Shown: positions 33,017-50,070 of the stretch, piece by piece
Layout of the letters: the number at the start of each line of letters is the position of its first letter
Numbering within the stretch: the first letter of the stretch is position 1
Assembly: GCA_963796685.1 (NCBI GenBank)
Contig: CAWCMR010000013.1
Coordinates: 160,001-224,000, forward strand
Direction of reading: 5' to 3'
Length of the DNA: 64,000 bases
Origin: an uncultured delta proteobacterium
Lineage (GTDB): Bacteria > Myxococcota_A > Polyangia > Fen-1088
Notes under the pieces: generated by a model
Told to the model about the DNA's origin: nothing
Database searches by the model: none
The model's input: the letters and a program-made list of their open reading frames with translations, nothing else
Position numbers and translations under genes: made by a program

Positions 33017-33017
33017 C

Positions 33018-35436: not shown

Positions 35437-36362
35437 CAAAGCGTGGCCAGAGGCGGTTCATCCACCGCCCGCGCATCAATCCCACACCGTCTGTTCCGGT
35501 GGTGCGTATCTTCGACACATTCACGCTGGAGTCTCTTCGCAAAGGGCCTCGGATCATGGCCGAGGTCCTACGGTTTGCGTGGGACCACTACTCCGCGCTT
35601 CAGCATCAGCGTTCGGCGGTTGCCGAGGCAATTGCCGAGGCGCTCGCCCGTGCCAGATCCGGCCCGTTTCCGTTCAGAGCATGGATGCGAGTCGTTGACT
35701 ACCGGTATACCAATCACCCTTTGTCAGTCGTCGGGAGCGTCAAGTCGATAGCGGGTGGCCGGTTCAACATCGGCGACCTCGATCCGATCAAGTTTGCGCC
35801 GTTCCCCGCGCTTTATCTGGCATCGGACCATGCGACGGTCTTGGCGGAGACACTTGGGCAACCTGGCGACTCCGACGGGCTCACTCAAAACGAACTGGCG
35901 CTACGAAGCAAGCGGTCCTATTCGTGCGTGGCCGTGAACGGGCTGATGGAGACGGTGATCGACCTCTCGAAGATGGACCGACTTCGCCAATTCGTGGACG
36001 TCATTGGGAAGTTCAAGCTGTCGGTCTCCATCCGCGAGGATGCGAAACGCCTCGGGATTCCGGGTGCAATTGTCTCGTCCATTGCTGGCCTGGAGACGGC
36101 TCTATTTGCGTTGCACTGGCGGGCTATGCCGATGCAGATGGGCGTTCCCGCATCATCCCAAATATTCGGACAGCTTGTTGCCCGTGCTGGAATCGAGGGC
36201 ATCGTCTTTCCGTCGGTAAGATCGGACTCGGGTGGAACGTCGCTGGCCGTGTTCCCCCAAAACCTTCAGGGCGATTCTTTCGTCGAGCTTGCCGATCCTG
36301 CGGCGCCCGCGACCAAGCACGCTCGTTTGGATGCCAAGACTTGGCGCACCTTTTTGTGCTGA
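35433..36362 (+). CDS. RES-domain toxin (NAD+ phosphorylase/mART family)
   Basis: GGRFN, ALYLASDHATVLAE, SQIFGQ, GIEGIVFPSVR, LAVFPQNL; conserved R, E and S residues present. Confidence 0.88.
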   Translation: MTKRGQRRFIHRPRINPTPSVPVVRIFDTFTLESLRKGPRIMAEVLRFAWDHYSALQHQRSAVAEAIAEALARARSGPFPFRAWMRVVDYRYTNHPLSVVGSVKSIAGGRFNIGDLDPIKFAPFPALYLASDHATVLAETLGQPGDSDGLTQNELALRSKRSYSCVAVNGLMETVIDLSKMDRLRQFVDVIGKFKLSVSIREDAKRLGIPGAIVSSIAGLETALFALHWRAMPMQMGVPASSQIFGQLVARAGIEGIVFPSVRSDSGGTSLAVFPQNLQGDSFVELADPAAPATKHARLDAKTWRTFLC

Positions 36363-36375
36363 CGGACTAGTCTAG

Positions 36376-36627
36376 TCAGCCATCGGCCAGTTCTCGCCTG
36401 AGCGAGCTCATGTCCACCGCGAAGGCATCCACATCCTCGCGGGCCAGGGCCAGGATGAAATCCGTGCGGCCAAGCCCAGCCAGCTGCGCGGCGCGCTCTT
36501 GCGAGATGAGGCCGCGCGAATACCAGTGGACGGCGGCGGCGAGACGCAGATCGCCGGCCATTTCGTCGGGAGACCGACGAAGCGCGGAGAAGGTTTCCTC
36601 GGGCAGTTGCACTTGAACCGTGACCAT
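36376..36627 (-). CDS. UPF0175-family antitoxin; PIN toxin partner missing
   Basis: LRLAAAVHWYSRGLISQERAAQLAGLGRTDF; the overlapping downstream start reads ATG GCT GAC TAG (MAD*). Confidence 0.85.
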   Translation of the reverse strand: MVTVQVQLPEETFSALRRSPDEMAGDLRLAAAVHWYSRGLISQERAAQLAGLGRTDFILALAREDVDAFAVDMSSLRRELADG

Positions 36628-36642
36628 GAGCTTGCGACAAGC

Positions 36643-36702
36643 CTACCACGACAACGCGTCTGGCGTTTCGGCGCGGGCATCGGGGTGGTAGCGGACCTTC
36701 AC
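36643..36702 (-). pseudogene. ParE/RelE toxin N-terminal stub
   Basis: GTGA-coupled MKVRYHPDARAETPDALSW* resembles the ParE N-terminus and ends after 19 codons. Confidence 0.6.
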
Positions 36703-36917
36703 CGGCCAGCCCGTGCGCGAAGACGTCTGGCGGCCTCGGCGTGGACTTCATCAGCATCGACCAAGGCCACCTTGCCATCCGCCACATCGCGCGCGCGGCG
36801 ATCAATCTCGGCCGCCCAAAGGGCGTCCGCGTTGGGATCGGCGTCTTCGGCGTCCAGGCTGGCGATGAGATCATCCGCCGCTGGCCTGGTCTTGGTCGAC
36901 CGCGCGCCCGGCATCAT
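36699..36917 (-). pseudogene. Addiction-module antitoxin (TIGR02574-like) with chimeric, truncated N-terminus
   Basis: LIASLD...DALWAAEIDRRARDVADGKVALVDADEV; the 5' ~45 bp resemble an out-of-frame piece of the 34687-34875 gene. Confidence 0.65.
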
Positions 36918-37417
36918 GGCAACTCTTCGTCGGCCAAACGAAGCACGGCCGCGCGTGTTTGCGCGTCCAGCCTGAATCGAAGAGCCGCGAGGCGATCGAG
37001 AACTGGGGCGACCGCGTCCAGAAAACCTTGCTGTTTGGCTTTCACCAAAACACCGGCTGTGCCGGTGAAGCGAACACCCAGATGGCCAGCGTAGCGGCGG
37101 GCGAGGCCGTCGTCGATGATCAGGATCGCGCCTGGCGTTTCTGCTGCCAGCGCAAGGGCTTCACGTTCTCCTGGCCCAAGGTCGCTCACTGCGGGCAAGA
37201 TGGCCATGCTCTGTGGGCGCACGATGCGCACCCAGGGAAAAGCGGTCGGGTCCGGAAGATCGAATCCCAGCGCGCGGCCAGCTGCCAGTTCCTGGACCAC
37301 GGCCGGTGGCACCAGGATCTCCTCGTACAGCTTCACCAGCAGATCGGTCAGGCCACACTGATGAAGGTACTGGAGCGGCGACGTGTTCGCGATCGTGACC
37401 GGACGCGGGTCAGGCAT
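36914..37417 (-). CDS. DUF3368 PIN-domain toxin
   Basis: IANTSPLQYL, ILVPPAVVQEL, LGPGEREALALA, LIIDDGLARR, FTGTAGVLVKAK. Confidence 0.9.
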   Translation of the reverse strand: MPDPRPVTIANTSPLQYLHQCGLTDLLVKLYEEILVPPAVVQELAAGRALGFDLPDPTAFPWVRIVRPQSMAILPAVSDLGPGEREALALAAETPGAILIIDDGLARRYAGHLGVRFTGTAGVLVKAKQQGFLDAVAPVLDRLAALRFRLDAQTRAAVLRLADEELP

Positions 37418-37658
37418 TCCGGACGTCTCGGGCAATTTCTTCGTCGGACAGCTTGAACACGGGAACGTCGTAGTCGGCCAGCTTGGTCATGAAGACTGGC
37501 TTGGGCAGGCCCGCTAGTTGAGCGGCGGCGCCAGCCGCGAGGCGCCCCATCTCGTATAGCTTCACAGCCGCGACCAACACGACCTCGCGCTCGGCGGCGT
37601 CCGCGCTCAGCTTCAACGCCAGCAGCGTTTCATCTGGGATGTTCAGGTGCCCGACCAT
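37410..37658 (-). CDS. UPF0175-family antitoxin
   Basis: AAVKLYEMGRLAAGAAAQLAGLPKPVFMTKLADYDV; overlaps the DUF3368 start. Confidence 0.88.
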   Translation of the reverse strand: MVGHLNIPDETLLALKLSADAAEREVVLVAAVKLYEMGRLAAGAAAQLAGLPKPVFMTKLADYDVPVFKLSDEEIARDVRNA

Positions 37659-37945
37659 GAAATGAACCTTACCACAGGGCTGATCCCTGAGCCGAGGAGG
37701 ATGCCATCGCGTCCCAAACACACCCCATCGGGTCGTTTGCCACGGCCGAAATTTTTGCCACGCTTTTGCCATGAAGTCCGACTTTGTGGTGGTCTTCTGC
37801 GGATAGACGCGGCTCGAAACGGAACGACCCCACCGAGCTGAACACCTGAAAACCACTCAGAAAACCAGCGCAAGGCCGCGTCGCGCCTGGGTCTTTTCTA
37901 AATGGCTTGCAGGTGTTTCAAGTCCCGATGGGTCACAAGGATTCG

Positions 37946-38035
37946 TCGGCCAGCTCTCGCCTGAGCGAACCTTCACCGGCTAGCCCGCGCGCGAAGACGT
38001 CTAGCGGCCTCGGCGTGGACTTCGTCAGCATCGAC
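37946..38035 (-). repeat. Fused copies of two antitoxin 3' ends outside the tRNA-Glu att repeat
   Basis: 37946-37968 matches 36383-36405 (1 mismatch); 37969-38035 matches 36695-36761 (4 mismatches in 67 bp). Confidence 0.85.
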
Positions 38036-38160
38036 GCTGCCACGGCGCCGTTCAGGTCACGGATCAAGGGGGCCCAGTCCTTGGCGCTGTGCCGGGGACG
38101 CCCACCGAATCGCTAGAAACAAGGCGAAATACGCAGCGTTTCCGCGTCCTGGTCCCCGAA

Positions 38161-38182
38161 GTTACCCCCAAAGTTACCCCCA
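38161..38182. promoter_or_regulatory. Integrase arm-type sites, distal att
   Basis: GTTACCCCCA-AA-GTTACCCCCA, the same tandem repeat as 49848-49869. Confidence 0.8.
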
Positions 38183-38217
38183 GAGGCGCGGCCCTAGAGT
38201 GGTTCGATTCCCGTTCT

Positions 38218-38502
38218 TCACTCGTCGCCGCGACCGCGCTTGGGCACGAGGGTAGCAAGGTCGAAGCGCAAAGTTCTGCCGACACGCTGGCAAGGAATCG
38301 AGCCGTCCTTCACTCGGCGCCACAGCGTCGCGCGCGAGATGCCGAGGATCCTCATTGCATCTTCCGGCCTTCCAAGCGCCGACGGCGCAGCGGCGCGAAG
38401 CTGCTCGACGGCGATGATCAGCCGGTCCACCCGTACAGCCAGCGCGGCGACAGCTCGCCTTGTGGCGCGGACCTCGGCAAGCGTGGCCGTGGGACGGCTC
38501 AC
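38218..38502 (-). CDS. Excisionase-like HTH protein
   Basis: AMRILGISRATLWRRVKDGSIPCQRVGRTLRFD; GTGA-coupled to the upstream gene. Confidence 0.75.
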   Translation of the reverse strand: MSRPTATLAEVRATRRAVAALAVRVDRLIIAVEQLRAAAPSALGRPEDAMRILGISRATLWRRVKDGSIPCQRVGRTLRFDLATLVPKRGRGDE

Positions 38503-39077
38503 GGAAAGAGGACACCCCGGTGGACATCGCGGACCCATTCGGCGGCCGCTCTAGGTGCTTCGTCGCGAAACTCGCGTGTTCCAAGCCCCCAGAGCAAGTC
38601 GATGCTCCGAAGGTAGGTCAAAACGCGTTCGTCCTCGTCGCTGCTACCAAGTATGCACTGGTGTTCGCCACCGATGTGCCTGTCAAAGCTGCCCAACTCG
38701 ACCGGCCAAGAATCGCCGTCGATGGACTTGCTGAATTCCCCAAGACGTCGTTGGTAGTCAACGATATCGGATGCGAAGTAGAACCTTGCCGCGACCCTAA
38801 CGGTCAATGTGCCTTTGTGTTCACCGATGAACTGAACCGGCGAAAGCAAGCCCGCCATGTACAGCTTCTCGATTACTTCGAACACTCGGACGTCGTGGTC
38901 CGAGTCCCACAAGACCGCGAGCGTGTGCACATGGGGAAGTTCCAGCCTCTCCCGCATCACGTCCAGCCATTCGGCACAGCGAACGATGCTGTAGTGGGTG
39001 TCCCACCCCAGGCCGACCGCCTCGGGCTGGTCGTAGATTGTCGAAAGGAGCGTGGAATACTGACGTGTTTCGCGCAT
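38499..39077 (-). CDS. Hypothetical cargo protein (192 aa, lower GC)
   Basis: GGAGG RBS before ATG 39077; globular composition; WDSDHDVRV and IGEHKGTL motifs; no family recognised. Confidence 0.7.
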   Translation of the reverse strand: MRETRQYSTLLSTIYDQPEAVGLGWDTHYSIVRCAEWLDVMRERLELPHVHTLAVLWDSDHDVRVFEVIEKLYMAGLLSPVQFIGEHKGTLTVRVAARFYFASDIVDYQRRLGEFSKSIDGDSWPVELGSFDRHIGGEHQCILGSSDEDERVLTYLRSIDLLWGLGTREFRDEAPRAAAEWVRDVHRGVLFP

Positions 39078-39269
39078 TGGTTTCCTCCGGTTTCGTAGGA
39101 AGTCGTGGGTTCCCCCACTGCGCCGACGCTTTCGGCATCGACGCGACTTGGAGCAGGATAGCATCGTGTCCGGTCGCCCGTCGAATGTATCGGCGAGCTC
39201 GGCCGGGGTTGCGCGGTCCAACCATCGGCCAACCACGCCGAAACGGGGTGGCCCACGGTTCGTCATGAT

Positions 39270-39347
39270 CTGCGGGTGACGCCAGCGGATGGCAGCGGGG
39301 TCACTGATCACGTTTTGGAGATTGGGGAGATCGTGGATCTACTCGGG
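39270..39347 (+). pseudogene. IS1-like transposase C-terminal remnant
   Basis: Degenerate LRVTPA(M)AAGVTDHV(W)EIGEIVDLL, resembling the TPAMAAGxTDHxW tail of IS1-type transposases. Confidence 0.55.
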
Positions 39348-39358
39348 CCGGAGAACGC

Positions 39359-39859
39359 TCACCGCGAGATCAGAGCTTGGGTTCTTGCCTTTTCTGCGCG
39401 CTCTTTGCGTCGGCTTGAAGTGCCGGTGATGAATGTTATGACTATTCCCGCAACGCCCGTGCCGCCTATCGCTGCACCCGCCGCATCATGCCCATTTAGG
39501 ACCGCATACGTTCCACAGGCGATCATGGCCAAGGTGAGTACGAATCCGCAGACAACGCCAGCGGTTGCGCGAAAGTTCTCACCGCCGAGCGCAGTCGTCT
39601 CCATGGCCATCCTGTGCTCACCCTGCCTATTCGCCATGTCGACAATTTTTGCCGCGAGGCCTGGAACTACCTTGTCATATCCAGCAAGGACGTCTGGATG
39701 GGGGATAGGGCCGGAGAAGCTCGTTTGCGTGTGCGAAAGTGATACTGCCGCAGCGGCGGCGTTCCCGTTGCCTTGCAGAGCGATTGGGGATTGCCTAGCG
39801 ATCTGATGGTGACGGCCCATGGGTAGCCGACGGCGCTTTCTGCTTTTCCTCTTCCCCAT
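39359..39859 (-). CDS. DUF2335-like membrane protein
   Basis: SFSGPIPHPDVLAGYDKVVPGLAAKIVDMANRQGEHRMAME followed by two TM helices. Confidence 0.8.
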   Translation of the reverse strand: MGKRKSRKRRRLPMGRHHQIARQSPIALQGNGNAAAAAVSLSHTQTSFSGPIPHPDVLAGYDKVVPGLAAKIVDMANRQGEHRMAMETTALGGENFRATAGVVCGFVLTLAMIACGTYAVLNGHDAAGAAIGGTGVAGIVITFITGTSSRRKERAEKARTQALISR

Positions 39860-40049
39860 GCACCGCATCTATCGCATTACACAAGTCTTGTCCAACTGCG
39901 CACCAGTCCGACGCCAACGCACGAGCGTCCGCTGTAGGGCCATCCGGCGAACGATTAAATTCGGTGAGCGTTCCACCCAAATCAAGAATCCTGGCCATTC
40001 CTTCAAAGAAGGATGGCCGCGCAAAGAGAAGGTCACTCATCTGAGTCAT
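39795..40049 (-). CDS. Small hypothetical protein upstream of the DUF2335 gene
   Basis: LFARPSFFEGMARILDLGG...ADARALASDWCAVGQDL. Confidence 0.65.
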   Translation of the reverse strand: MTQMSDLLFARPSFFEGMARILDLGGTLTEFNRSPDGPTADARALASDWCAVGQDLCNAIDAVHGEEEKQKAPSATHGPSPSDR

Positions 40050-40260
40050 TCGTACAGATCCCATTTTACACTATGATCACCAGGATCAACTCTTCCGATT
40101 GGATGGCTCAAAACGTCTCTCGGTTCACGTGTGAATGCACTTCCTAGCACATCATCGCTGGAATCAAGAGAACCTTGAACATTAGCTGCAAAGCGCGTCA
40201 TCCACCTTACCACCCCTGCACCGTCCCTTTCGCCACTTTGGCCACGCCCCGCCACGCCCT

Positions 40261-40781
40261 TCACCCCTTCGTCCGGCTCGGCGACGTTGCCCACGGTTGA
40301 TCAACGATTTCGGCCGCCGGCTCTCGAGCAGTCTTCAGGGCCTCCGCTGTACATTGGAACGTCCTACGTACGAAAGCCCGATCGCCGCCTGCACAACCGG
40401 CAACGGCGCGCCGCCGGGAAACTGATCGGCGATATCCAGGGCGCAGCTCTTGTCCGCGGGCACTTCGGCCGGTTCGCGGTCGGGAAAGTTCAGCTTGATC
40501 GATCCTCGCGGGCTCACGTCGAGGTAGTTGTTGAATCGACAAGAAACCCACGGGCACGGCCTGGGGCCGTCTATGCAGTCACCGCGGGTCTTGGGCCGCT
40601 CCACGTCGCTGGGGTATTCCACCACCTCGCCAAACCATCGGTCGCGCAAGGCCCGCTGGGAATCCGGCGCTGCGGGGTGTTGCTGGTGGTAGGCAGCCAT
40701 CCCGGCTTGACCATGCCGCGTGACCACGCCGATTCCATCGCGCCACGATTCGAGCTGCCGAAGGTTTATCGATTTCCGCAC
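40261..40781 (-). CDS. Cys-rich DNA-binding protein with sigma region-4-like HTH (probable frameshift near 40365)
   Basis: RPKTRGDCIDGPRPCPWVSCRFNNYLDVSPRGSIKLNFPD...SCALDIAD; the HTH continues IGLSY|RTFQCTAEALKTARE in the adjacent frame. Confidence 0.6.
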
Positions 40782-40787
40782 GAGGCC

Positions 40788-41081
40788 TCACGCGGTCGGC
40801 GCTTCGAGTAGTGCCACCAACCTGGGTGGGAGCCACGCGGGCACGCAGTCGAGATGGTCCAGGACAGATCGCAGCCGATTGAGCACGCGATTGACTTGCA
40901 CGTGCGATGGCTTCCCGGCTGCCACAAAAGCGGCTAGGTTTGCATCGAGTGAGCCTTGTGTGCGTCCAAGCGTCTCGATTGCCCAACAGTCGAACGCCAG
41001 CACGGCCAGCGTGAGGTTGCCCCGCACGTCCAGCAGCACGGGGGATTCCTCGCCGCGAAGGTCTTGCTCGGCCGCGGTCAC
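40788..41081 (-). CDS. Hypothetical protein
   Basis: GTGA-coupled ORF in the satellite operon. Confidence 0.5.
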   Translation of the reverse strand: MTAAEQDLRGEESPVLLDVRGNLTLAVLAFDCWAIETLGRTQGSLDANLAAFVAAGKPSHVQVNRVLNRLRSVLDHLDCVPAWLPPRLVALLEAPTA

Positions 41082-41440
41082 GTTCCAGCCTCGGTTGAGA
41101 TCAGCTTGACCGCGGACACCACGGCGCGGGCAAACGTCCGGGCATCCTTCCCGCCCAAAGACCAGCAGATGTCGGTGCTACTGCGGACTGGCCACCATCG
41201 ACCGGCCGTGTCCTGATGCCACCGACGAATCAGAATCCTAGCTGGCCGCCCAGCGGTAGGTGGTTGGCTGGTGATTCGCAACTCGCTGCCGTTCTTGATT
41301 GCGATCGCTCCGTGGAGCCGGTGGGCCGCCTCCGGGCCGCGGTCGGTTGCTGGGCGCGGGCGTGCCGGCGTGGGCGCTGGCGTCTCGGCTTCGCCAAAGC
41401 CATGAAAGGCGAGGCGGGCGGATGTGTTGGGCGAGTTCAT
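41078..41440 (-). CDS. PC4/YdbC-like ssDNA-binding protein
   Basis: ELRITS...ILIRRWHQDTAGRWWPVR resembles the PC4-fold DIRxWYxDxxGEWxP motif; ATGA-coupled. Confidence 0.5.
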   Translation of the reverse strand: MNSPNTSARLAFHGFGEAETPAPTPARPRPATDRGPEAAHRLHGAIAIKNGSELRITSQPPTAGRPARILIRRWHQDTAGRWWPVRSSTDICWSLGGKDARTFARAVVSAVKLISTEAGT

Positions 41441-42033
41441 AGGCCCTTCGCCTCGCGGGCCAAGGACGCCTGCGCCTCCTCCCCGTAGATCGAGCCCAGT
41501 TCCGGATCCCCGAGAAGCAGGTGCAGCGCATCGTCGATGAAGCCTTCGATGTGATTCACGTCGAGATCGGATAGGTCGCGTTTGCGGGCGATGACTTTTG
41601 CCCAAACGAGTGACTCCCGCGCCGAGCGCAACCAGCGCCCGAAACTCTCAAGCTCTGCGTTCAGCCGGCGGGATTTCTTGGCTCTGGCGATGTCGCCCAG
41701 CACCTCGCGATGCCAGGCTAGACACTTGTTGGCCTCGGCGATGAGCGATGCCCGATCCGTGCGGCTGAGTTCGCCGAGTTCGGCCGCTACCGCCGCCGAA
41801 TGCCGCTCGTATTCCGTCTCGGGCGCCGGCGCGCCCCCATCTGGCGGACACCATTTTCCCGACGGGATCCACGAACGCATCGCGAGGTCAGGATTGATGA
41901 TGGTGATGTGGCTGCGCTTGCCGGGTTTCCCGGTGATGCGCACCGCTGCCGCGGGAATCAGGCCGTCGCGGACCGCGCGCGCAACGGTTCTCCGGGAGCA
42001 TCCGCGTAGCTTCGCAAATTCCTCTGTTGTCAT
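41437..42033 (-). CDS. Putative terminase small subunit (lambda Nu1-like winged HTH plus helical domain)
   Basis: AAGGAG RBS; MTTEEFAKLRGCSRRTVARAVRDGLIP...IINPDLAMRSW N-terminus, helical C-terminus; preceded by a cos-like intergenic region. Confidence 0.6.
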   Translation of the reverse strand: MTTEEFAKLRGCSRRTVARAVRDGLIPAAAVRITGKPGKRSHITIINPDLAMRSWIPSGKWCPPDGGAPAPETEYERHSAAVAAELGELSRTDRASLIAEANKCLAWHREVLGDIARAKKSRRLNAELESFGRWLRSARESLVWAKVIARKRDLSDLDVNHIEGFIDDALHLLLGDPELGSIYGEEAQASLAREAKGL

Positions 42034-42159
42034 AGTGTGTTTCTCCTTACGTGAGACAAGATGGGACATTCTTTTTCGGTGTTGTGCAGACACGTGGCGG
42101 GGCTCCTAGGCGCCGCGTCGTCCAAAACGGCCCAAAGGAGGTACCCCCGTCCGGGCCCG

Positions 42160-42384
42160 TCATTGCCGCTTGCCGAGCCTTCGATCGATGCTCCAGCAGA
42201 GCCACGCCGACCTCACCACCTCCACGCCACACTTGGCACTCAGCCCCACGCCAACCAGGGCAAGCGCCGCCAACCTTGCGGCGGCGGACGCCATCGCCCA
42301 CAGTGCCACCGCCAGGCGCTTCAGCGCAGCCACCAGACCGCCGCGCTTCCCCTTGGCGACAGGGGCGGGCGCCTCACTACTCAT
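42160..42384 (-). CDS. Small hydrophobic protein
   Basis: MSSEAPAPVAKGKRGGLVAALKRLAVALWAMASAAARLAALALVGVGL; overlaps the upstream stop. Confidence 0.5.
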   Translation of the reverse strand: MSSEAPAPVAKGKRGGLVAALKRLAVALWAMASAAARLAALALVGVGLSAKCGVEVVRSAWLCWSIDRRLGKRQ

Positions 42385-42814
42385 CCCTGGCCTTCGCTGT
42401 GCACGCGTGCGCTTCCGCCAACGCCTGTTCATCGAAGGCCTGCATCCTCGCGATGAAGGCATCCTCCTCGCTCCTGTTGTCGATGGGAGTGGGCCGGGCC
42501 TTGGCCATGACCGCTCGAAACTCGGCGTCGGGCCCGACCGCCGCCGCCGCCTTCGACGTGCCGGCAAGCAGCTCGGCCGCGCTCTCGATGGTCATGCCCG
42601 GCATGGCCGCCAGCCTGATGGCCAAGGGTCGCCGTCCCACTGCCTCCGCGTGCCCAACGATGCCTAGGATGCGTTCGCGCTCGACGGTGGCGGCCTCGGC
42701 TCGCGCCTTCGCCTTCGCGCTTTCCCGCGCCTCTGTGAGAGCCTCAGCCCTTGCCTCTGCCTGGATCTGCGCGACCACGTCGGGATACTCGGCCCGCAAC
42801 TGTTCGAGCGTCAC
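42377..42814 (-). CDS. Capsid scaffold-like protein (Nu3 / S49 protease C-terminal type), long form
   Basis: MTLEQLRAEYPDVVAQIQAEA...ERERILGIVGHAEAVGRRPLAIRLAAMPGMTIESAAELL; GTGA-coupled. Confidence 0.6.
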   Translation of the reverse strand: MTLEQLRAEYPDVVAQIQAEARAEALTEARESAKAKARAEAATVERERILGIVGHAEAVGRRPLAIRLAAMPGMTIESAAELLAGTSKAAAAVGPDAEFRAVMAKARPTPIDNRSEEDAFIARMQAFDEQALAEAHACTAKARDE

Positions 42815-43017
42815 AATGCCACCTCCGTGGCCGTCGTGGTAAGCAGCTCGGCCGCAACCTCGACGGTCATTTCCGGCATGGCAGCGAGTCGGATAGCGGC
42901 TGCGCGCCACCCCTTGGCTGCGGGATGCGAGACGATCGCGAGGATGCGTTCACGCTCGGCCGTCGCCGCTCTCTCGTAGTTGCGCTCGAAGATCATTTGC
43001 CGCAGAGACGGGGTCAC
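42811..43017 (-). CDS. Capsid scaffold-like protein, short paralog
   Basis: AERERILAIVSHPAAKGWRAAAIRLAAMPEMTVEVAAELL, a clear paralog of the core of 42377-42814. Confidence 0.6.
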   Translation of the reverse strand: MTPSLRQMIFERNYERAATAERERILAIVSHPAAKGWRAAAIRLAAMPEMTVEVAAELLTTTATEVAL

Positions 43018-43370
43018 GACGCCACCACGCTGTCGTAGGACTTCATCCGCCGCAAAAAGGCCTCGGTTTCGGGATCGTCATCCTGGGCCGTGCCGGTCGG
43101 CGTTTCGCCTGCATCGAGTCTGCGCATGCGTTCGAGAAAAGCCGACTCCTCGGCCGCCTCGCTGGTTGCCGGCATCGCACGCGCGACAGGTGCGCTCGGC
43201 GTGGTGATGCGTGCGCTTGCCGTGGGCGTGGACACCGTTGTGGGCGCGGTGGCCGCGCATTCAGCGCTGCAAAAGCCCGACGTCCGCACTCCGAATCGGC
43301 CGCACGTGCATCGCGTTTGCGCGCGTTCCACGACGGCGGCCAGGGTCTCTTCGCCTTGCGTGTTCATCAC
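43014..43370 (-). CDS. Small protein with N-terminal Cys cluster and duplicated acidic AFxxRM helix
   Basis: CTCG...FCSAEC, Thr/Ala linker, EESAFLERMRRLD and ETEAFLRRMKSYD. Confidence 0.6.
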   Translation of the reverse strand: MMNTQGEETLAAVVERAQTRCTCGRFGVRTSGFCSAECAATAPTTVSTPTASARITTPSAPVARAMPATSEAAEESAFLERMRRLDAGETPTGTAQDDDPETEAFLRRMKSYDSVVAS

Positions 43371-43879
43371 GCACCCGCCTTGCGCGAGGACTTCGCCGGC
43401 TGCTGTGCTGCCAGCGCCGCTTCGAGAGCGGCCACTCGCTCGGCCAGCTTCGCCGGGTTCAGCTCGGCGGGGAGGCATTCAACACAGCACAACTCGCCCC
43501 GCGCGTTGAATCCCACAGCCGGGCGCCCAGCTTTGTAGACAGTGTCCGGATGCCTGACGCAAAACATCGGATCGATAGGAAGCTCGGCTTCCCGCTCGTG
43601 CCGGTCGCGTATCTTTGCCAGCTCCGCGTCGATTTCTGGCCGCCTTCGCGCGGACTCCGCTCGGCGCAAATCTTCCTCCGCTCGCCGAACGCACATCGTG
43701 CACCGCCGCTCCCCCACCGTTCCGTCGGCGGCGGTCACTTGGTGGGTTACGTCGCTCGGCAGATGACAGCGATCGCAGGTGTTCGGCATCTTTTCGAGGG
43801 GTATCGGAGGGCCATCGGTTGGCCCGGCCTCGGATGCCCCCCTTTCGGTGATCGGTGGTTGCAGATAGTTGGATTGCAT
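43367..43879 (-). CDS. Hypothetical Zn-binding/coiled-coil protein
   Basis: AAAGGA RBS; CDRC...CTMC and CVRH...CCVEC motifs. Confidence 0.65.
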   Translation of the reverse strand: MQSNYLQPPITERGASEAGPTDGPPIPLEKMPNTCDRCHLPSDVTHQVTAADGTVGERRCTMCVRRAEEDLRRAESARRRPEIDAELAKIRDRHEREAELPIDPMFCVRHPDTVYKAGRPAVGFNARGELCCVECLPAELNPAKLAERVAALEAALAAQQPAKSSRKAGA

Positions 43880-43915
43880 GTCGGTTCCTTTCGGTTTGTT
43901 GGTTCGGTCGAAAAT

Positions 43916-44018
43916 CCCCACCGCCTAGCCTGTGCATCCGCCTGAAAGCAGAAGAGCGGTTGCATCCGGGCGACGATTCCCGACCGGGCGCATGGTCCCG
44001 GCAAGCGAAGTGGTGGGG
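43916..44018 (-). ncRNA. Predicted four-way-junction (cloverleaf) structured RNA
   Basis: Closing stem CCCCACCACTTCGCTTG/CAGGCTAGGCGGTGGGG enclosing three hairpins with almost no linker. Confidence 0.5.
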
Positions 44019-44036
44019 TAAACCTTGAGCGGGAGA

Positions 44037-44225
44037 TCATCGGGCTGGCTCCCCTTGCGGCTGCACCAACTCGTGCTGGCGGGGCGTTTCCTGCGTCGAT
44101 GGCGTGCTGGTGCGAGCAATCGCGCGCCAACAGCGTGAGCACAGCAGTTTTCGAGCAACCGCTACGAAGTGCATCTCGGGCGTGGTCAGGTGGCACACGT
44201 CGCATGCATCGCGAGTCGCGGTCAT
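44037..44225 (-). CDS. Small Zn-ribbon protein
   Basis: CDVC...CSRC; ATGA-coupled. Confidence 0.55.
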   Translation of the reverse strand: MTATRDACDVCHLTTPEMHFVAVARKLLCSRCWRAIARTSTPSTQETPRQHELVQPQGEPAR

Positions 44226-44629
44226 GGTGTGGCCTCACGCAGGCACTTGCGACAAACCCTGCCGGAGGTCAGGCCAGGAAGAACGGTTTCGGCTTTGGCG
44301 TCGGTGCCTCCGCAGTCGAGGCACAGCCGTTCGCTTTTCGCGTGGTCCGCCGCGGCCAGTGCCTTGAGCACCGCGAGTTCCCAGGCTCGCAACCGGATCT
44401 CGAGTTCGGCCAGGTCGCCCACACCACGCTGGCAGCGACTAGCCTCTCGACCACACGCAGCCATCGCGCGGGCCACGGCGGGGAGGCGCTCTACCGTAGG
44501 CCACCGATCGTCAAGATCGGGATGCTCCCCGGCTAGGCGGGCCCATGATTCCGCCCAGAGCGCCGCGACGACGTCAGGGGTGCCGGTGCCCAGGGCGTGA
44601 GTGGTGACCAAAGTGCAGGCGGCGGTCAT
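44222..44629 (-). CDS. Hypothetical protein with C-terminal Zn ribbon
   Basis: CLDCG...VCRKC; ATGA-coupled. Confidence 0.6.
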   Translation of the reverse strand: MTAACTLVTTHALGTGTPDVVAALWAESWARLAGEHPDLDDRWPTVERLPAVARAMAACGREASRCQRGVGDLAELEIRLRAWELAVLKALAAADHAKSERLCLDCGGTDAKAETVLPGLTSGRVCRKCLREATP

Positions 44630-44805
44630 TGCAACCCCGCTGGCTTGGGCACCATGAAGATCGGCGGGCGGCCATCTTCGCCAGGACGAAGCCCACGAAG
44701 GTCAACGAGTCGCCCGCGCCAGTCGTAGCCCCAACCGATGGGCGCCATGGGCGTGGCCGTGGTGTCGGTCGTGGGCGCGGCCGCGGTGAACAGCGGGGTC
44801 GTCAT
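44626..44805 (-). CDS. Small hypothetical protein (59 aa)
   Basis: MTTPLFTAAAPTT...GWGYDWRGRLVDLRGL; ATGA overlaps at both ends; below the ORF-track length cutoff. Confidence 0.5.
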   Translation of the reverse strand: MTTPLFTAAAPTTDTTATPMAPIGWGYDWRGRLVDLRGLRPGEDGRPPIFMVPKPAGLQ

Positions 44806-46148
44806 CGATCAGACTCCGGATCAGTGCCATCCGTTGCCGACAACCACGTGGTCAGCTCGGGGGCCCATCTGCACCTCGCCGCCCCTGTCCGTCCCTCGCG
44901 GTTTTTCGCCACGATGATCCGATCCCCATCGGCGCCATGGGTAAGAAACAACACAATGTCGGACTCCTGCTCGAAGGATCCCGTCTCGCGTAAGTCGGAC
45001 AGCATCGGGTCACCACCGCGCTTTTCAATCTCGCGCGAGAGCATCGCCACAAGGAGCACCACACACCCAAGCTCCTTGGCCAAGGTCTTCATGGCGACGG
45101 GCACCTTTGCCGCCTCTTGCTCGCGGGTGTCGCCCCTCTCGCGTCCCACTTGCACCCGTTGTGCGTAGTCGAGCACGATGAGCGCGCGCTTGTCGTCTTC
45201 CTTGCCACTGCGGAGAAATCGCGGGGCCACATGGCGGGCGTGCCACCGCCGGGCCTCGCCGGTGATCTGACCGAGCCGCACGGCCCGGTCGTTCACCCAC
45301 AGCAACGACGAATCGAACCGACCGGATGAGGCTCCAATCTTGCCCCATTCCGCTTTGTCCACACTCCCGACCTTGAGCTTGTGCGAGTTGATACCGGCGT
45401 CGCCGGAAAGCCAGCGCCGACCAAGTCGCTTGAGCATCATTTCAACCGAGAAAAACGCGGTCGGTACTCCGTGCATCCCACAGTACGCAGCGACGTTGCC
45501 CACGAATGCCGACTTGCCGACACCGGGACGAGCGGAGACGGTCACAAGATCGCCGGGCTCGAATCCTTCTGCGACATGGTCAAGCGTCGGAATGCCGGCG
45601 AAGACCCGCGGAACCAACTCGCCCCGCTGCTGTTTCTCGACATCGTCAGCAGCCTCGCGGATTGCCGTAGATACGTGGACCATGCCGCAGTCGCGCGAGA
45701 GATTTTCAAGCTCGGCCGTGCCGTCGCGCATGGCCTGGATCTGCTCTTCCCAGGGTTGGCCACCGTAGGCGAGCGCCAGCGTGTTGGTGCAGGTCTCGAT
45801 CAGTTTTCTACTGGCCGCCAGCTCCCGGACAATCTGCGCGTGGTGGCGCACCTGCTGCGGGATGGCCGCATCGCTCGCGCAAGCCATCGCCCACTCGTGC
45901 CAGCTCGGCGCGAAGTGCGGCTCGGCACCGGCCGCCTTGATGGCGCTGCTGAGTGAGATGGGATCGGTCGGAAGACCCTTGGAAACGGCGGCACTGGCGG
46001 CAGCCCAGGCCTCGCGATGGCACGGCACAAAGAACTCGTCCGGGCGTAGGCCGTCCGATTCCACGATCGCCGCATCGCCGTAGACCAGCTCGGATCCGAT
46101 GACGGCCCGCTCGGCCTCGACGTTGTGTGGTGGCGTCCGGTCGGTCAT
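44802..46148 (-). CDS. dnaB: DnaB-like replicative helicase
   Basis: PPHNVEAERAVIGS, Walker A ARPGVGKS, FFSVEM, IVLDYAQ, LSREIEKRG, PMLSDLRETGSFEQESD, IIVAKNREGRTG. Confidence 0.92.
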   Translation of the reverse strand: MTDRTPPHNVEAERAVIGSELVYGDAAIVESDGLRPDEFFVPCHREAWAAASAAVSKGLPTDPISLSSAIKAAGAEPHFAPSWHEWAMACASDAAIPQQVRHHAQIVRELAASRKLIETCTNTLALAYGGQPWEEQIQAMRDGTAELENLSRDCGMVHVSTAIREAADDVEKQQRGELVPRVFAGIPTLDHVAEGFEPGDLVTVSARPGVGKSAFVGNVAAYCGMHGVPTAFFSVEMMLKRLGRRWLSGDAGINSHKLKVGSVDKAEWGKIGASSGRFDSSLLWVNDRAVRLGQITGEARRWHARHVAPRFLRSGKEDDKRALIVLDYAQRVQVGRERGDTREQEAAKVPVAMKTLAKELGCVVLLVAMLSREIEKRGGDPMLSDLRETGSFEQESDIVLFLTHGADGDRIIVAKNREGRTGAARCRWAPELTTWLSATDGTDPESDR

Positions 46149-46957
46149 GTGCCTACCTCGCCGAGTCCGGGCAGGTCTGGCCACGTGTATGGCGCCGGCT
46201 GGCCGGGCCTGGCTTGCGGGCGCGCAGCGGCCGTGCGCTCGTCTGTCCATCGCTGCTGATGCAGGTAGCTCGCCAGGTAGGGCACGTGCGCGGGATATTC
46301 GCGATCCGTCGCCTGCCAGTGCGGAACCTGCCAGGCTAGGGCCGAGGTCACGGCATCGGCTAGTGCTGCCTCGCCGCCGGCATAGTCGCGCGCCTGTCGC
46401 GTCCAGCTCACGGCGGCTTTGGCTTTCGCGTCTCGCCGGGGATAGATAGCCCAGATGCGGGCAAATGCCTCTGACACCTCAGCTCGACGAGCGCGCGCAC
46501 GCCCAGGAGCGGCAGCGGATGGGCATGTATCCTGATTTGGGGAAGGGGATCCGGATCGGGAAGGGGAACGGGAACGGGACGCTGCCACTGTCGCGCTATT
46601 CGACTGTCCATTAGACGCGCTACTAGCGCCGCTATTGGACGCTGCCCATTCTCGCTTGCGCTTCCGCTCGGCCTCGATGTGGGCCCGGCTCGGCTGGTAC
46701 TCGAGGTAGTCGTGGATCTGGTAGCCGCCCTCGACCATCTCCCACAAGCCGATGCGCACCAGCTCGGCCGCAGTGCCGGAGGCGTCGACTGTCCGCGCGT
46801 AGGCCGCGACCACCGGCAGATCGGCAGTGACGATGACGCCATCCGATTCGGCTTGCGCGGCGTAGGCCAGGCCCGCGAAGTACATCAGGCGGGCGGCATC
46901 GCTGCACCGGAACTTGCGATGCAGGAAGATCCTGTCGTCGATTTTGACCCAGCTCAC
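46145..46957 (-). CDS. Phage-type replication initiator
   Basis: WVKIDDRIFLHRKF...GYQIHDYLEYQPS N-domain, Ser/Pro linker, FARIWAIYPRRDAKAKA...YLASYLHQQRWTDE C-domain; coupled to alpA and dnaB. Confidence 0.75.
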   Translation of the reverse strand: MSWVKIDDRIFLHRKFRCSDAARLMYFAGLAYAAQAESDGVIVTADLPVVAAYARTVDASGTAAELVRIGLWEMVEGGYQIHDYLEYQPSRAHIEAERKRKREWAASNSGASSASNGQSNSATVAASRSRSPSRSGSPSPNQDTCPSAAAPGRARARRAEVSEAFARIWAIYPRRDAKAKAAVSWTRQARDYAGGEAALADAVTSALAWQVPHWQATDREYPAHVPYLASYLHQQRWTDERTAAARPQARPGQPAPYTWPDLPGLGEVGT

Positions 46958-47232
46958 GGCCCGATTACCTCGTCGGCCAGGCGCGCGGCCTCGAGCACGT
47001 CGGCGTCGGTGACGGCGGGTCGCGCCCCCCTCGCTGCGTCGGCGATGCGCTCGCGGATCCAGTTTTCGATCTGGTCGCTCGGCCACGCCACACACCTGGC
47101 ACCCAGCTTGATCGGGGCCGGGAACGTGCCAGCCTGGATCGCGGCGTAGATGGCAGTCCTGCGCAGTCCCACGCGTGCGATCACGCCTGGCAATCTCAGC
47201 AGGCAGATCGGAGCGGGCGGTGCGGCGGTCAT
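46954..47232 (-). CDS. alpA: AlpA-family regulator/excisionase
   Basis: LLRLPGVIARVGLRRTAIYAAIQAGTFPAPIKLGARCVAWPSDQIENWI. Confidence 0.92.
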   Translation of the reverse strand: MTAAPPAPICLLRLPGVIARVGLRRTAIYAAIQAGTFPAPIKLGARCVAWPSDQIENWIRERIADAARGARPAVTDADVLEAARLADEVIGP

Positions 47233-47450
47233 CGCTGCACCGGAGCGAGGTCTGCGAGCTTTTGCGCCGCGAGCGCCAGGGTGCCCGCTCGCACGCCGAG
47301 CGACCCCCGGATCCTGGTGAGTGACGCCTCGGACACCCCGAGTAGTTTGGCGGTGCGGACAGTCCCTTCTCGCTCGACGAGCTCGCGCACCGCCCGGACA
47401 AATAGCGGGCCAGGTTGGACGAGGCCGCCCGAAAGAAAATGCTCATGCAT
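47229..47450 (-). CDS. Small HTH (Cro-like) protein
   Basis: GTVRTAKLLGVSEASLTRIR; ATGA-coupled to alpA. Confidence 0.55.
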   Translation of the reverse strand: MHEHFLSGGLVQPGPLFVRAVRELVEREGTVRTAKLLGVSEASLTRIRGSLGVRAGTLALAAQKLADLAPVQR

Positions 47451-47537
47451 ACAGAAAACTCTGGCATGGCACCTCAGCGGCCGACGCGACAATTGGACCA
47501 CCTGTCGGCGTCTATTGTCGCTGGCCCGTCGCTGTGA

Positions 47538-48446
47538 CTACTTGCCGGGCTTGCGCTGGCGTCGCTTCTTTTTGCTGGTCTTGCGCTGCCTGGTCTCTTC
47601 GGCGGCCTTGCGCTCGCGTTTCTTGGCCAGCGTCTTTTGGAGCGTGACGCTTGTGTAATCGTCGCCCACCAGGTCTAGGTTCTTGAGGGCCTTGACGACG
47701 TTGTCGTTATCCTTCTCGCCGCGCTTCTTCAACTCGGCCGCAACAAGCGTCGACACTGCATCGTGCGCGCCACGCTTCGGTGGCGAGGGGAATTTGAGCG
47801 ATAGCCCTTCATCCGTCCATGTGCTCGCGAAGCCGAGAAACTGGACGATCTCTTGAGACGGAAGCGTGCCCCATTGGAACGGGTGCAGATCGTCGATGGC
47901 TCGCGCGGCTTTGAGCGCATCTGTGAGGGCCGCCCTAAGTTTGCCGAGTTCGGCCTTGATCTTCAGTGAGTCCTGACCGTGCTTGAGGTTCGCATTGACC
48001 GAGTCGAGCGCCAGGGGAGCGCGCGCGGCTTTCGGATTCTTCAGGTACGAAGGATTGCACCCCGCATACGCCTGTTCGAGCTGGGGGAAGGTCCTTTTCT
48101 TGCCATCCTTGTCCTTGCCATTGAACCACTGATGGATTCGTTGACATAGTTCGAGCCCCTTCGATCTCTGGTCCGGTGCCTTGCTCGTCGGTGCCTTGCT
48201 CGGCTCCGGCAACGCAGGCAGTCCTTGCTTGGCCCGCATCTCCCGGATCACGTCCTCGGCCGACGGCTTCGGCTTTGCCGGCGTCGTGGCCTTCTTCCTG
48301 GCCAACGCCGCTTCGACCACCGCCCTACGCTGGGCCGGGTTCTTGGGCTGACCGACCTCCGGTGCCGTCGGCGCCGAGTTCGCCTCGCCTTGAGGCGCGC
48401 GCTTCGGTTGGCGGGGCTTCGGTTGGGTTGTCTTCGTCACGTGCAT
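47538..48446 (-). CDS. Basic hypothetical protein between int and alpA
   Basis: 302-aa ORF, Lys-rich termini, no family recognised. Confidence 0.65.
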   Translation of the reverse strand: MHVTKTTQPKPRQPKRAPQGEANSAPTAPEVGQPKNPAQRRAVVEAALARKKATTPAKPKPSAEDVIREMRAKQGLPALPEPSKAPTSKAPDQRSKGLELCQRIHQWFNGKDKDGKKRTFPQLEQAYAGCNPSYLKNPKAARAPLALDSVNANLKHGQDSLKIKAELGKLRAALTDALKAARAIDDLHPFQWGTLPSQEIVQFLGFASTWTDEGLSLKFPSPPKRGAHDAVSTLVAAELKKRGEKDNDNVVKALKNLDLVGDDYTSVTLQKTLAKKRERKAAEETRQRKTSKKKRRQRKPGK

Positions 48447-48465
48447 TTCCGTCTGCACTTCCTTC

Positions 48466-48545
48466 AAAAAAAGACCGTGGGCTGGGCCAGGGGAAATGCG
48501 GCCTGGCCCTCGACCGGGGGATCAGTCCCAATCGCTGCCCACGGT
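48466..48545 (-). ncRNA. c4-like three-way-junction antisense RNA / attenuator downstream of int
   Basis: ACCGTGGGC...GCCCACGGT closing stem plus a U7 tail; inner hairpins CGATTGGG-ACTGATCC-CCCGGTCG and GGGCCAGG-CCGCATTTCC-CCTGGCCC. Confidence 0.65.
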
Positions 48546-48551
48546 GGAAAA

Positions 48552-49772
48552 CTAGATCGTCAACACTGCCCCCTCGGTCTGCTTGGGAGATTCACCGGCG
48601 GCGAGCTCGCCCAAGTAGTCCGCCCATCGTTGCATCATCGCCTTGCGCTCGGGAAGGAAGGCGGTGCGGTTGTAGGCGCGGCCGTTGGGATCGCGGACTG
48701 CGTGCGCAAGCTGCGCTTCGATCAGGTCCACGCGTTCGCCGAGGACCTCGTCAAGCAGGGTTCGGGCGGTCGCGCGGAACCCGTGGCCGCTCGCCGTGGC
48801 CTTGGCGATATCCAGGCGGCGAAGGGCGGCGTTGACCGCGGCGTCGGACATCGGCCGATCCCTGCTTCTCTGCGATGGGAACACGTAGGGGCACAAGCCA
48901 GTCAGTGGGTGCAGCTCGCGCAAGATGGCGACCGCCTGCTTGGCCAGGGGCACGATGTGCGGCGTCCCGGTCTTGCTGGCGGTGAAGCGCCACTCGGCCT
49001 TGGGAAGGTCGATGTCAGCCCACTTGGCCGCACGCAGTTCGCCGGGGCGGACGAAGAGCAGGGGGGCCAGCTTCAGCGCAGCGGCCACGATGGGCGTGCC
49101 CTCGTCGTACTTCCAGATCATGCGCAACAGGTCTGCCAGCTTCGCGGGCTCGGTTACCGCGGCCATGTGCTTGGCCTTCACCGGCGGCAAGGCGCCACGT
49201 AGGTCTGCCGTCGGGTCGCGTTCGGCGCGGGCGGTGGCGATGGCGTACCGGAAGATCTGCGAAAGGGCAATGCGCGTGCGGTGCGCGCTTTCTAGTCGCC
49301 CTCTGGCCTCGATACGTCGGAGCACGGCCAGCACTTCGGGGGGCGCGATCTGGCCGATGGGCCGCGACCCTATCCACGGGAATGCATCGTTCGTGAGCCT
49401 CGCGCGAACGCCGCGCGCATGGGACGGCACCCACGTACCTTCAAACCGCTTCAGCCACTCCTCGCCGACGGTTTGAAGGGTGTTGGCGCCTGCCTCCGCC
49501 GACGCAACCTTCGCTGCCTTCCGGTGCGCGCTGGGGTCGATACCGTCGCGAACCTGCTTGCGGGTTGCTTCCCGCTTCTCCCTGGCCTCGGCCAGCGTCG
49601 TCTCGGGATACGTGCCGAGCGATAGCAGCTTCTCTTTGCCGTCGAAGCGGTACTTGAGGCGCCACCACTTGCCGCCAGCCGGTGCAACCTCCAGATACAA
49701 CCCGCCGGTGTCGTAGAGGCGTGTCCTCTTTTCTGCCGGCTTGGCTTTCTTGCAGGCGGTGTCGGTCAGCAT
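48552..49772 (-). CDS. int: P4-family tyrosine integrase with arm-binding domain
   Basis: YDTGGLYLEV...KWWRLKYRFDGKEKLLSLGTYP, FVRPGELR, K, HGFR, LAH, YNR catalytic set intact. Confidence 0.95.
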   Translation of the reverse strand: MLTDTACKKAKPAEKRTRLYDTGGLYLEVAPAGGKWWRLKYRFDGKEKLLSLGTYPETTLAEAREKREATRKQVRDGIDPSAHRKAAKVASAEAGANTLQTVGEEWLKRFEGTWVPSHARGVRARLTNDAFPWIGSRPIGQIAPPEVLAVLRRIEARGRLESAHRTRIALSQIFRYAIATARAERDPTADLRGALPPVKAKHMAAVTEPAKLADLLRMIWKYDEGTPIVAAALKLAPLLFVRPGELRAAKWADIDLPKAEWRFTASKTGTPHIVPLAKQAVAILRELHPLTGLCPYVFPSQRSRDRPMSDAAVNAALRRLDIAKATASGHGFRATARTLLDEVLGERVDLIEAQLAHAVRDPNGRAYNRTAFLPERKAMMQRWADYLGELAAGESPKQTEGAVLTI

Positions 49773-49819
49773 CTGGGGATCCTTTCGGCCCGGGAATCGA
49801 ACCCGCTAAGTTGGGGCTT

Positions 49820-49869
49820 TGGGGGTAACTGGTTTTGGAGTCGGCGAGTTACCCCCAAGGTTACCCCCA
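49820..49869. promoter_or_regulatory. Integrase arm-type sites, tRNA-proximal att
   Basis: TGGGGGTAAC (inverted) and GTTACCCCCA-AG-GTTACCCCCA. Confidence 0.8.
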
Positions 49870-49985
49870 CACGTTCACGGCTGTCAACAGACGCAGCCGG
49901 ACTCTAGCGGAGCCAAAGCGGCACTAAATAGCTGATTTCGCTAGATGCCGTGGACTCTCGCGGACAGTGACGGATTACCGCAGAG

Positions 49986-50070
49986 TGCCGGGGACGGGAC
50001 TCGAACCCGTACGCCGCTTTCGCGACAGCGGATTTTAAGTCCGCGGCGTCTACCATTTCGCCACCCCGGC
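49986..50070 (-). tRNA. tRNA-Leu(TAA)
   Basis: GCCGGGG/CCCCGGC-A acceptor stem, GCGGA-CTTAAAA-TCCGC anticodon arm, long variable arm, GGTTCGAGTCC. Confidence 0.95.

Follow-up and report, generated by a model that had tools for sequence, protein, structure and literature searches.

The DNA analysed here (the window) is a stretch of 64,000 nucleotides (nt) on contig CAWCMR010000013.1 of an uncultured bacterium, probably a member of the Myxococcota, the phylum to which protein atlas leads also point. It contains an integrated element of 11,896 base pairs (bp) that lies between two copies of the 12-bp core GTGCCGGGGACG. The first copy (49985-49996) is the integrase-side attachment (att) core and forms the last 12 nt of a tRNA-Leu(taa) gene on the minus strand (49985-50070; ARAGORN, with a Rfam tRNA score of 59.8 bits). 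The second, the distal att core (38089-38100), is a repeat of the tRNA-Leu 3' end as read in the sequence. Close to both cores is the decamer GTTACCCCCA, which has five copies in the whole window when 0.01 would be expected, all of them no more than about 170 bp from either end of the element. A tandem pair on the plus strand (38161-38182, starting at 38161 and 38173) marks the distal end, and three copies (49820-49869), one inverted (49820) and two direct (49848 and 49860), lie between the integrase gene and the tRNA. This layout looks like that of arm-type integrase sites. In a comparison with a genome of the same genus (G036, 92% identity), homology spans the tRNA and breaks exactly at 49985. 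Beyond the tRNA-Leu gene the DNA differs in every genome of the genus examined, and in one of them (G034) a related integrase is found there. Therefore, the tRNA-Leu site is an integration hotspot. None of the relatives offers an empty site for comparison, and the left flank is without synteny too. One soil-metagenome DNA run contains 0.08 of the sampled words of the element, in short contigs and with no att joints seen, and no RNA sequencing run is listed as containing it.

The gene model of the element has 23 open reading frames (ORFs), all on the minus strand and reading away from the tRNA. They are closely packed. Neighbours share a 4-nt ATGA or GTGA overlap at 12 of the 22 junctions, and there is one overlap of 1 nt and one of 8 nt. 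No ORF matched capsid, portal, large terminase (TerL), tail or lysis families in scans against Pfam and PHROGs. In these respects a preliminary description of the same DNA has been corroborated. It had proposed an 11.9-kilobase (kb) element bounded by a tRNA-Leu core and arm sites, with about 22 co-oriented and mostly coupled genes and no recognisable gene for a capsid, portal, TerL, tail or lysis protein. It had also named a P4-type integrase, an AlpA protein, an initiator and a DnaB helicase, and each of these now has a family match.

The integrase is a P4-type tyrosine recombinase of 406 amino acids (aa) encoded next to the tRNA (48552-49772), with Arm-DNA-bind_3, Phage_int_M and Phage_integrase domains and a match to phrog_1 (E 2e-60). 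An AlpA-family regulator or excisionase (92 aa; 46954-47232; PF05930, E 1.7e-12; phrog_66) is followed by a replication initiator, Rep (270 aa; 46145-46957; phrog_2447, phrog_9474 and phrog_3926, E about 1e-19). Next comes a DnaB-type replicative helicase (448 aa; 44802-46148) that has both a DnaB_C domain (E 1.2e-50) and a DnaB N-terminal domain and matches phrog_19 (E 6.5e-60). No primase domain was found. The preliminary description was right that there is an initiator, but its extent had to be redrawn. A 440-aa ORF considered as a single initiator was rejected, because AlpA is encoded in another frame across its first third and only then does Rep begin. Within the rep gene a GGGAAC-type repeat (46540-46579; 18-nt period, 2.2 copies) coincides with a low-complexity Ser/Pro/Arg linker. 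It could represent the iterons of an intragenic origin.

Further from the tRNA, two adjacent ORFs encode proteins with a common helical core, one full length (145 aa; 42377-42814; phrog_53, E 3.5e-12; phrog_8399) and one reduced to the core (68 aa; 42811-43017; phrog_17040, phrog_53 and phrog_8399; profile match E 1.1e-18). Both match the C-terminal part of phrog_53, a head maturation protease, and phrog_8399, a scaffold. When a profile of these proteins was compared with 1.84 billion representative sequences, 411 proteins matched at E<=1e-3, and they fall into two length classes. Some are free-standing proteins of about 60-210 aa, and others have about 380-505 aa and match only at the C-terminal end. 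A Pfam-type domain scan covered 30 of the 411. Among these, all 17 proteins of at least 379 aa have an N-terminal Peptidase_S49 domain with the scaffold match C-terminal to it, five shorter ones have a partial S49 domain and the remaining eight, which are free-standing, match no Pfam family. Aligned with the fused proteins, the free-standing ones start exactly at the beginning of the post-protease part, a point at which one fused protein has a methionine. The annotation of phage lambda shows the same layout: nu3, the gene for a capsid assembly protein, is nested within the 3' portion of gene C, which encodes an S49 peptidase. Indeed, the scaffold profile aligns with lambda Nu3 itself over 168 columns (hhalign probability 98.4%, E 5.8e-15). 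By these comparisons the proteins, previously described as scaffold-like, are Nu3 homologues, free-standing versions of the C-terminal part of an S49 protease-scaffold.

A third protein might belong with these two. The 117-aa product of the next gene towards the tRNA (43014-43367) has an N-terminal cysteine cluster, and its C-terminal tail bears a weak likeness to the scaffold profile (hhalign probability 50%, E 1.6e-4, 40 columns). An N-terminal CxxC...CxxC segment also occurs in some free-standing scaffold homologues from metagenomes. That the 117-aa protein is a relative of the scaffold tail is a lead only. A tblastn search with the scaffold protein found no match in 50,697 GenBank phage records, word-indexed homologue searches returned just three matches for the scaffold and two for the small terminase described next, and a genome contig scan found a single distant locus, in Marinomonas (29% identity). 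Sequence searches of the PDB with the scaffold profile, the small terminase profile and the 148-aa protein discussed further below gave nothing significant.

Downstream of the scaffold genes is a gene for a 198-aa protein with an N-terminal helix-turn-helix (HTH) domain of the HTH_17 family (41437-42033). Taken alone, its matches to the small terminase (TerS) family are confined to the HTH, and a word-indexed search finds one cluster of homologues. One clue to its identity is that a related element in G036, described below, has in the equivalent place a gene for a full-length TerS of phrog_57 (E 9.8e-24). The alignment of the 198-aa family was compared with an alignment of the G036 TerS and three phage TerS proteins, and the two match over 171 columns (hhalign probability 97.8%, E 8e-13). 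This profile comparison supports identification of the 198-aa protein as a divergent small terminase subunit of the phrog_57 type. The preliminary description had called it a Nu1-like HTH protein. The assignment to the small terminases has held, but homology with Nu1 is not supported. There is no match to Pfam Nu1 (PF07471), and hhalign against lambda Nu1 gives a probability of 18.7%.

Between the scaffold genes and terS lies a conserved non-coding block of about 70 nt (42060-42153, minus strand), within a gap of 126 nt that precedes terS. Four other places have this block ahead of terS as well: the G036 element, a 2,089-bp contig (L058), which was the one contig obtained from a metagenome scan, and two phage contigs of the IMG/VR database. 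The core of the block hardly differs between the window and L058, whereas the flanking proteins are just 48-56% identical, an argument that a cis-acting site is under selection. A degenerate 25-nt pattern that describes the block has one match in the window, where none is expected by chance, and in 2.9 million IMG/VR contigs it has only two matches. These are the two phage contigs just mentioned, which have a lambda-type head module. What might the site be? Terminases of the lambda gpA type cut at cohesive-end (cos) sites adjoining the small terminase gene, and one of the two phage contigs, a linear fragment of 25.8 kb that is 48% complete, terminates within the block, as expected of a genome end there. 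The block is thus a candidate for a cos-type packaging site common to the element and to the phages. The main alternative is that it is a late promoter or operator for an activator encoded by a helper phage, copied by the element to switch on its own operon. In favour of this, the block is directly upstream of the first head gene in phages and elements alike, and the elements encode a protein related to Sigma70_r4-type proteins in the same operon. The contig that ends within the block and the position at which gpA-type terminases cut both speak for a packaging site instead, and a generic sigma-70 scan, whose weight is limited in this organism, finds nothing promoter-like in the element. A promoter therefore seems a rather unlikely, though not a far-fetched, explanation, and one that is compatible with the element being a phage satellite.

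The combination of scaffold, block and small terminase is not confined to the window. The G036 genome carries a sister element of 11,819 bp (L027, contig C21) at a tRNA-Arg(acg) gene, bounded by 43-bp perfect repeats (L027 3882-3924 and 15701-15743) of the 5' part of that gene. Its integrase adjoins the 5' side of the tRNA, and two other loci (L007 and L030) likewise have an integrase just upstream of a tRNA gene. Much of the G036 element is different. The integrase is another one, with a Phage_integrase domain only, an AAA_25 helicase takes the place of Rep and DnaB, and other small genes are present. What is kept is the order of the two Cys proteins (65% and 80% identical to the 184-aa and 117-aa proteins of the window), the scaffold (66%), TerS, three ORFs that follow terS (57%, 38% and 50% identical where they align) and a distal HTH_17 protein (59%). 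The L058 contig has the order short scaffold, long scaffold, block, TerS and next ORF. The module is rare. The scaffold profile finds two of 89 genomes of the order, the host genome (G000) and G036, and none of 400 other sampled genomes of the phylum, with at most four candidates scored per genome.

The two complete elements are otherwise mosaic, yet they differ in length by just 77 bp. That mosaic elements are nearly equal in length (11,896 and 11,819 bp) suggests a packaging-size constraint. Four copies of the element would amount to 47.6 kb, or 89% of the 53.5-kb genome of the candidate helper phage considered next. It is conceivable that multimers are packaged in full heads, or that the element is packaged in smaller heads.

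Which phages could be exploited in this way? IMG/VR contigs of the lineage in question, which includes UViG_3300045051_000356 and UViG_3300026181_000093, encode a protease-scaffold that is 47-57% identical to the scaffold of the element across the scaffold domain. Their genes run in the order TerS (phrog_57), TerL (phrog_15), Ad1 adaptor, portal (phrog_21), S49 protease/scaffold (phrog_53), decoration protein and major head protein (phrog_29). With lambda gpA their TerL shares 31% identity (E 2e-83), and their capsid protein shares 30% with lambda gpE (E 9e-37). One record is a complete genome of 53,555 bp with direct terminal repeats, and another is the 25.8-kb fragment that ends within the block. 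In the complete candidate helper a tail sheath gene follows the head module, indicating a contractile tail. The G+C content of the contigs (62-66%) is similar to that of the element. A 30-nt match between one phage contig (L041) and contig C25 of G000 was considered as a possible CRISPR spacer and rejected; it lies in an ordinary coding region, not in a CRISPR array.

Could the element be what is left of such a phage? In this scenario deletion would have removed the structural genes of a prophage with a lambda-type head but spared TerS and the scaffold portion of the protease gene. TerS and the Nu3 domain are, after all, phage genes. There are also signs of rearrangement: the element contains a scar of an insertion sequence (IS), which shows at least one such event, and the flank at 34.6-38.1 kb is rearranged relative to relatives. 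However, the order is wrong. In the element scaffold comes before TerS, the reverse of the phage order, and between the two there is only a small ORF and the block, without traces of TerL, portal or S49 sequence. The scaffold gene has been duplicated and stands by itself, with a start of its own, and many other free-standing homologues exist. Tight translational coupling does not suit a decayed prophage either. Furthermore, the module recurs in three contexts that are independent of one another and differ in their integrase and replication genes. Finally, nine head and tail proteins of the complete phage were used in tblastn searches of G000, and only the scaffold part matches, at the element itself, which argues against a decayed prophage at this locus. 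A prophage remnant is thus very improbable. The preliminary description reached the same view from the intact ends and the gene coupling. The argument from coupling stands, but the one from intact ends is weakened a little by the IS scar.

The reading that we consider probable, with a fair margin left for error, is that the region is an integrated phage satellite of the kind known as phage-inducible chromosomal islands (PICIs), and that its targets are phages whose head and packaging module is of the lambda type. The reason is that, beyond its own integration and replication genes, what the element shares with lambda-headed phages is confined to TerS, copies of a Nu3-type scaffold and a sequence resembling a packaging site. 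The preliminary description had suggested parasitism of a lambda-like cos phage. That suggestion has gained support from the Nu3 homology, the TerS assignment, the shared block and the sister module, while we infer mobilisation, the function of the block and any effect on capsids. A plausible course of events would be as follows. Upon infection by a helper, or its induction, AlpA and the integrase would excise the element, which Rep and DnaB would then replicate. The TerS of the element would steer the gpA-type large terminase of the helper to the cos-like site of the element. Meanwhile, the Nu3-like proteins (full length, core only and perhaps the Cys-rich protein with the tail motif) would compete with the helper scaffold for the gpE-type capsid protein, so that capsid size might be altered or helper assembly blocked.

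Several observations weigh against this interpretation. The excision, replication and packaging of the element are predictions from its sequence, its att core is only 12 bp long and about half of its ORFs are without a family or an assignable function. The IS scar is a sign of past damage. The block may be a promoter and not a cos site, the support for the latter being one contig end only. A lambda-like prophage elsewhere in the host, which the preliminary description had proposed as a check, was not found in G000 (88.6% complete): there is no helper-type prophage there, as judged by the lack of any match to PF05065 or PF03354. Across the 89 genomes of the family, GpA_ATPase is found in two, both times on small contigs in other genera and never in the genus, and Phage_cap_E is above the cut-off in none. 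In addition, the element type is rare in the sampled genomes.

What if the Nu3-like proteins and TerS are not there to divert a helper, but to poison it? In this hypothetical scenario the element is an anti-phage interference island, in which these proteins act as dominant-negative decoys in the assembly and packaging of lambda-headed phages, and spread in particles is slight or absent. The decoy-type genes are present, a resident helper is not, the element is rare and it has accessory genes without an assigned function and a DUF2335 membrane protein, all of which would suit such an island. However, the flanking coding sequence is much less conserved than the non-coding block that the phages also have, the two mosaic elements are of almost equal length and there is a complete integration and replication set. 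These are properties expected of a packaged element and needless for a pure defence island. Known satellites interfere with their helpers too, so the two readings overlap. An island devoted to interference is therefore improbable.

The remaining genes of the element are less informative. Between the integrase and alpA genes are a lysine-rich protein (309 aa; 47538-48467), which has no Pfam, PHROGs or NCBIfam family and no protein atlas match at or above 0.9, and a putative regulator (90 aa; 47229-47501), start-stop coupled to alpA, which has a paralogue in another island of the same genome. After dnaB there are three coupled small ORFs (59, 135 and 62 aa; 44037-44805). The last two encode pairs of CxxC motifs, with sub-threshold matches only to zinc-ribbon-like Pfam families. 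The CxxC protein of 184 aa (43367-43921), already mentioned for its G036 counterpart, is also 55% identical over its C-terminal end to a protein in L058. A small hydrophobic ORF (74 aa; 42160-42384) overlaps the stop codon of the scaffold gene and has no counterpart in L058 or the G036 element.

The three ORFs downstream of terS (120, 97 and 148 aa; 40335-41440) are conserved in the sister elements. The 148-aa protein is the one related to Sigma70_r4-type DNA-binding proteins, as indicated by protein atlas leads and by PF04545 in its paralogue on contig C14 of G000. That chromosomal paralogue (G000:C14:49172-49708; L009 9172-9708) has a Sigma70_r4 domain and is 51% identical over 83 aa. Its neighbours are of a housekeeping type (DksA, a MerR-like protein and PmbA/TldD), and the paralogue itself is conserved, with about 70% DNA identity, in many genomes of the family.

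Further on are accessory genes, two small ORFs and the DUF2335 membrane protein (39359-40294; PF10097; phrog_3996, E 1e-34), and genes of this region have homologues in an unrelated island of G033. The IS scar is the remnant of the 3' end of a transposase gene, about 75 nt between the DUF2335 gene and the next ORF (39270-39346). It is multi-copy in genomes of the family (83-91% identical), and in other copies the transposase-like frame continues upstream. At the distal end (38218-39311) there is an ORF of up to 270 aa together with the HTH_17 protein, which is excisionase-like (106 aa; PF12728, E 3.5e-8). In G035 a group II intron reverse transcriptase/maturase gene (contig C7; L028 17437-18810) is separated by about 7 kb from a homologue of the 270-aa ORF with 72% identity. 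An Rfam scan identified tRNAs only, and promoter and terminator scans of the element were at or below the shuffled expectation.

The surroundings of the element have features of their own. The interval from tRNA-Gln/tRNA-Glu to the element (34640-38088) is island-like, and synteny with relatives is lost right after tRNA-Glu. It includes a UPF0175 antitoxin and PIN (DUF3368) toxin pair (36914-37856). A truncated gene copy adjoining the att core is marked by a repeat of 72 nt (36690-36761 and 37964-38035, 93% identical). The two tRNA loci are about 150 kb apart in G033 and G035 compared with 15 kb here. A sequence of about 90 nt at 32926-33017 is repeated dozens of times across four genomes of the genus, and many of these copies follow one another head to tail at intervals of about 80 nt. 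It may be akin to repetitive extragenic palindromes or miniature inverted-repeat transposable elements, or be another array repeat.

G000 also has three more small islands, at C13:383-392 kb (L007), C6:36-46 kb (L008) and C13:688-698 kb (L010). Their genes include a D5_N primase-helicase at a tRNA-Arg gene, a Toprim-DnaB fusion and, at a tRNA-Met gene, a P4-type integrase with AlpA and DUF5906. The integrase of the tRNA-Met island is 82% identical to that of the element, and the three islands have a few small ORFs in common with it. An HTH_23 protein in L010 has weak TerS matches (E about 6e-4).

If the satellite interpretation is true, satellites have a new host lineage and a new hijack module. 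A full-text search found no literature linking phage satellites with the Myxococcota. In the portion of the literature on satellites, scaffolding and PICIs that was available to us, no mention of Nu3 was found. Almost all known satellites come from Proteobacteria and Firmicutes, with a few Actinobacteria besides (PMC10085698). The proposed pair of satellite and helper is directly testable, because there is a concrete helper type, represented by the two IMG/VR phage contigs, and a candidate packaging site shared with it. The set of Nu3-derived proteins would also be a natural experiment on how internal scaffolds set the size of lambda-type capsids. A bolder version can be formulated. Perhaps the element belongs to a distinct satellite family, the first in its lineage (probably Myxococcota), which parasitises cos phages of about 53 kb with lambda-type heads and contractile tails. 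It would do so with its own TerS and cos site and with Nu3-derived decoys (full length, core only and Cys-cluster/tail) that re-size or sabotage the capsid, a toolkit undescribed for any satellite. Packaging would hold the length at 11.8-11.9 kb while integrase, att and replication genes are exchanged. We regard this as a tentative proposal, a little short of an even bet.

How does the element compare with known systems? For its scaffold and its proposed helpers, a close known system is lambda. The scaffold is homologous to Nu3, and the candidate helpers have the lambda head order (Nu1-A-W-B-C/Nu3-D-E), a gpA-like TerL and a gpE-like capsid protein. In contrast with lambda, the element is without an S49 protease part, TerL, portal or capsid gene and its TerS is not demonstrably related to Nu1, and the complete candidate helper has the sheath gene of a contractile tail. 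The capsid-forming PICIs differ in another way, since no capsid, portal, protease, head-tail connectors or TerL of its own is recognised in the element.

There is some likeness to P4, which also has a P4-type integrase at a tRNA gene, AlpA and reliance (inferred in the case of the element) on a cos-packaging helper. However, no PHROG, Pfam or NCBIfam match to the alpha primase-helicase, Sid, Psu, Delta or epsilon was found in the element. It is therefore without a recognised P4 hijack operon, and it would replicate by Rep and DnaB. It also has its own TerS, whereas P4, to our knowledge, has none. P4 Sid forms an external scaffold cage; the scaffold strategy of the element would instead be internal and Nu3-like. 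As for size, the median for P4-like elements is given as 10 kb (PMC10085698), close to the 11.9 kb here.

Reliance on lambda-type phages has a precedent in EcCICFT073, one of the Gram-negative PICIs, which lambda and phi80 mobilise through its cos sites and which is described as having no capsid-morphogenesis genes (PMC6092414). The element differs from it in having scaffold genes and its own TerS. For a satellite-encoded alternative internal scaffold, the nearest concept is CpmB of the Staphylococcus aureus pathogenicity islands (SaPIs). CpmB, the subject of work by Dearborn and colleagues, is reportedly a small satellite protein related to the internal scaffold of the helper, with which it is said to compete during procapsid assembly. 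In contrast, the protein of the element is a full homologue of the Nu3 family rather than one with just a common C-terminal tail, there are two or three paralogues, and an effect on capsid size would be by analogy.

It is with the PICIs as a whole that the element has most in common. Five PICI components have been listed: an integrase, a regulator (alpA, merR or stl), a primase-replicase, a capsid-morphogenesis gene and a small terminase (PMC10085698). The element has the integrase, an alpA-type regulator and a small terminase, and there is no match to tail or holin genes, the forbidden components. For the primase-replicase it has an initiator (phrog_2447/9474) and DnaB, and for capsid morphogenesis it has the Nu3-type scaffold homologues, a comparison made by function and not by PICI profiles. 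With a functional counterpart of all five components, a typical size and no structural genes, the element works like a PICI as far as its gene content can tell. The preliminary claim that it fits none of the known families was therefore overstated; only the individual proteins differ. These differences are an initiator and a separate DnaB instead of pri-rep, a capsid gene that is a Nu3-type scaffold in several forms and a host outside the Proteobacteria and Firmicutes. In other words, what is left of the claim to a wholly new type is a PICI-kind element with an undescribed hijack module in an unusual host lineage.

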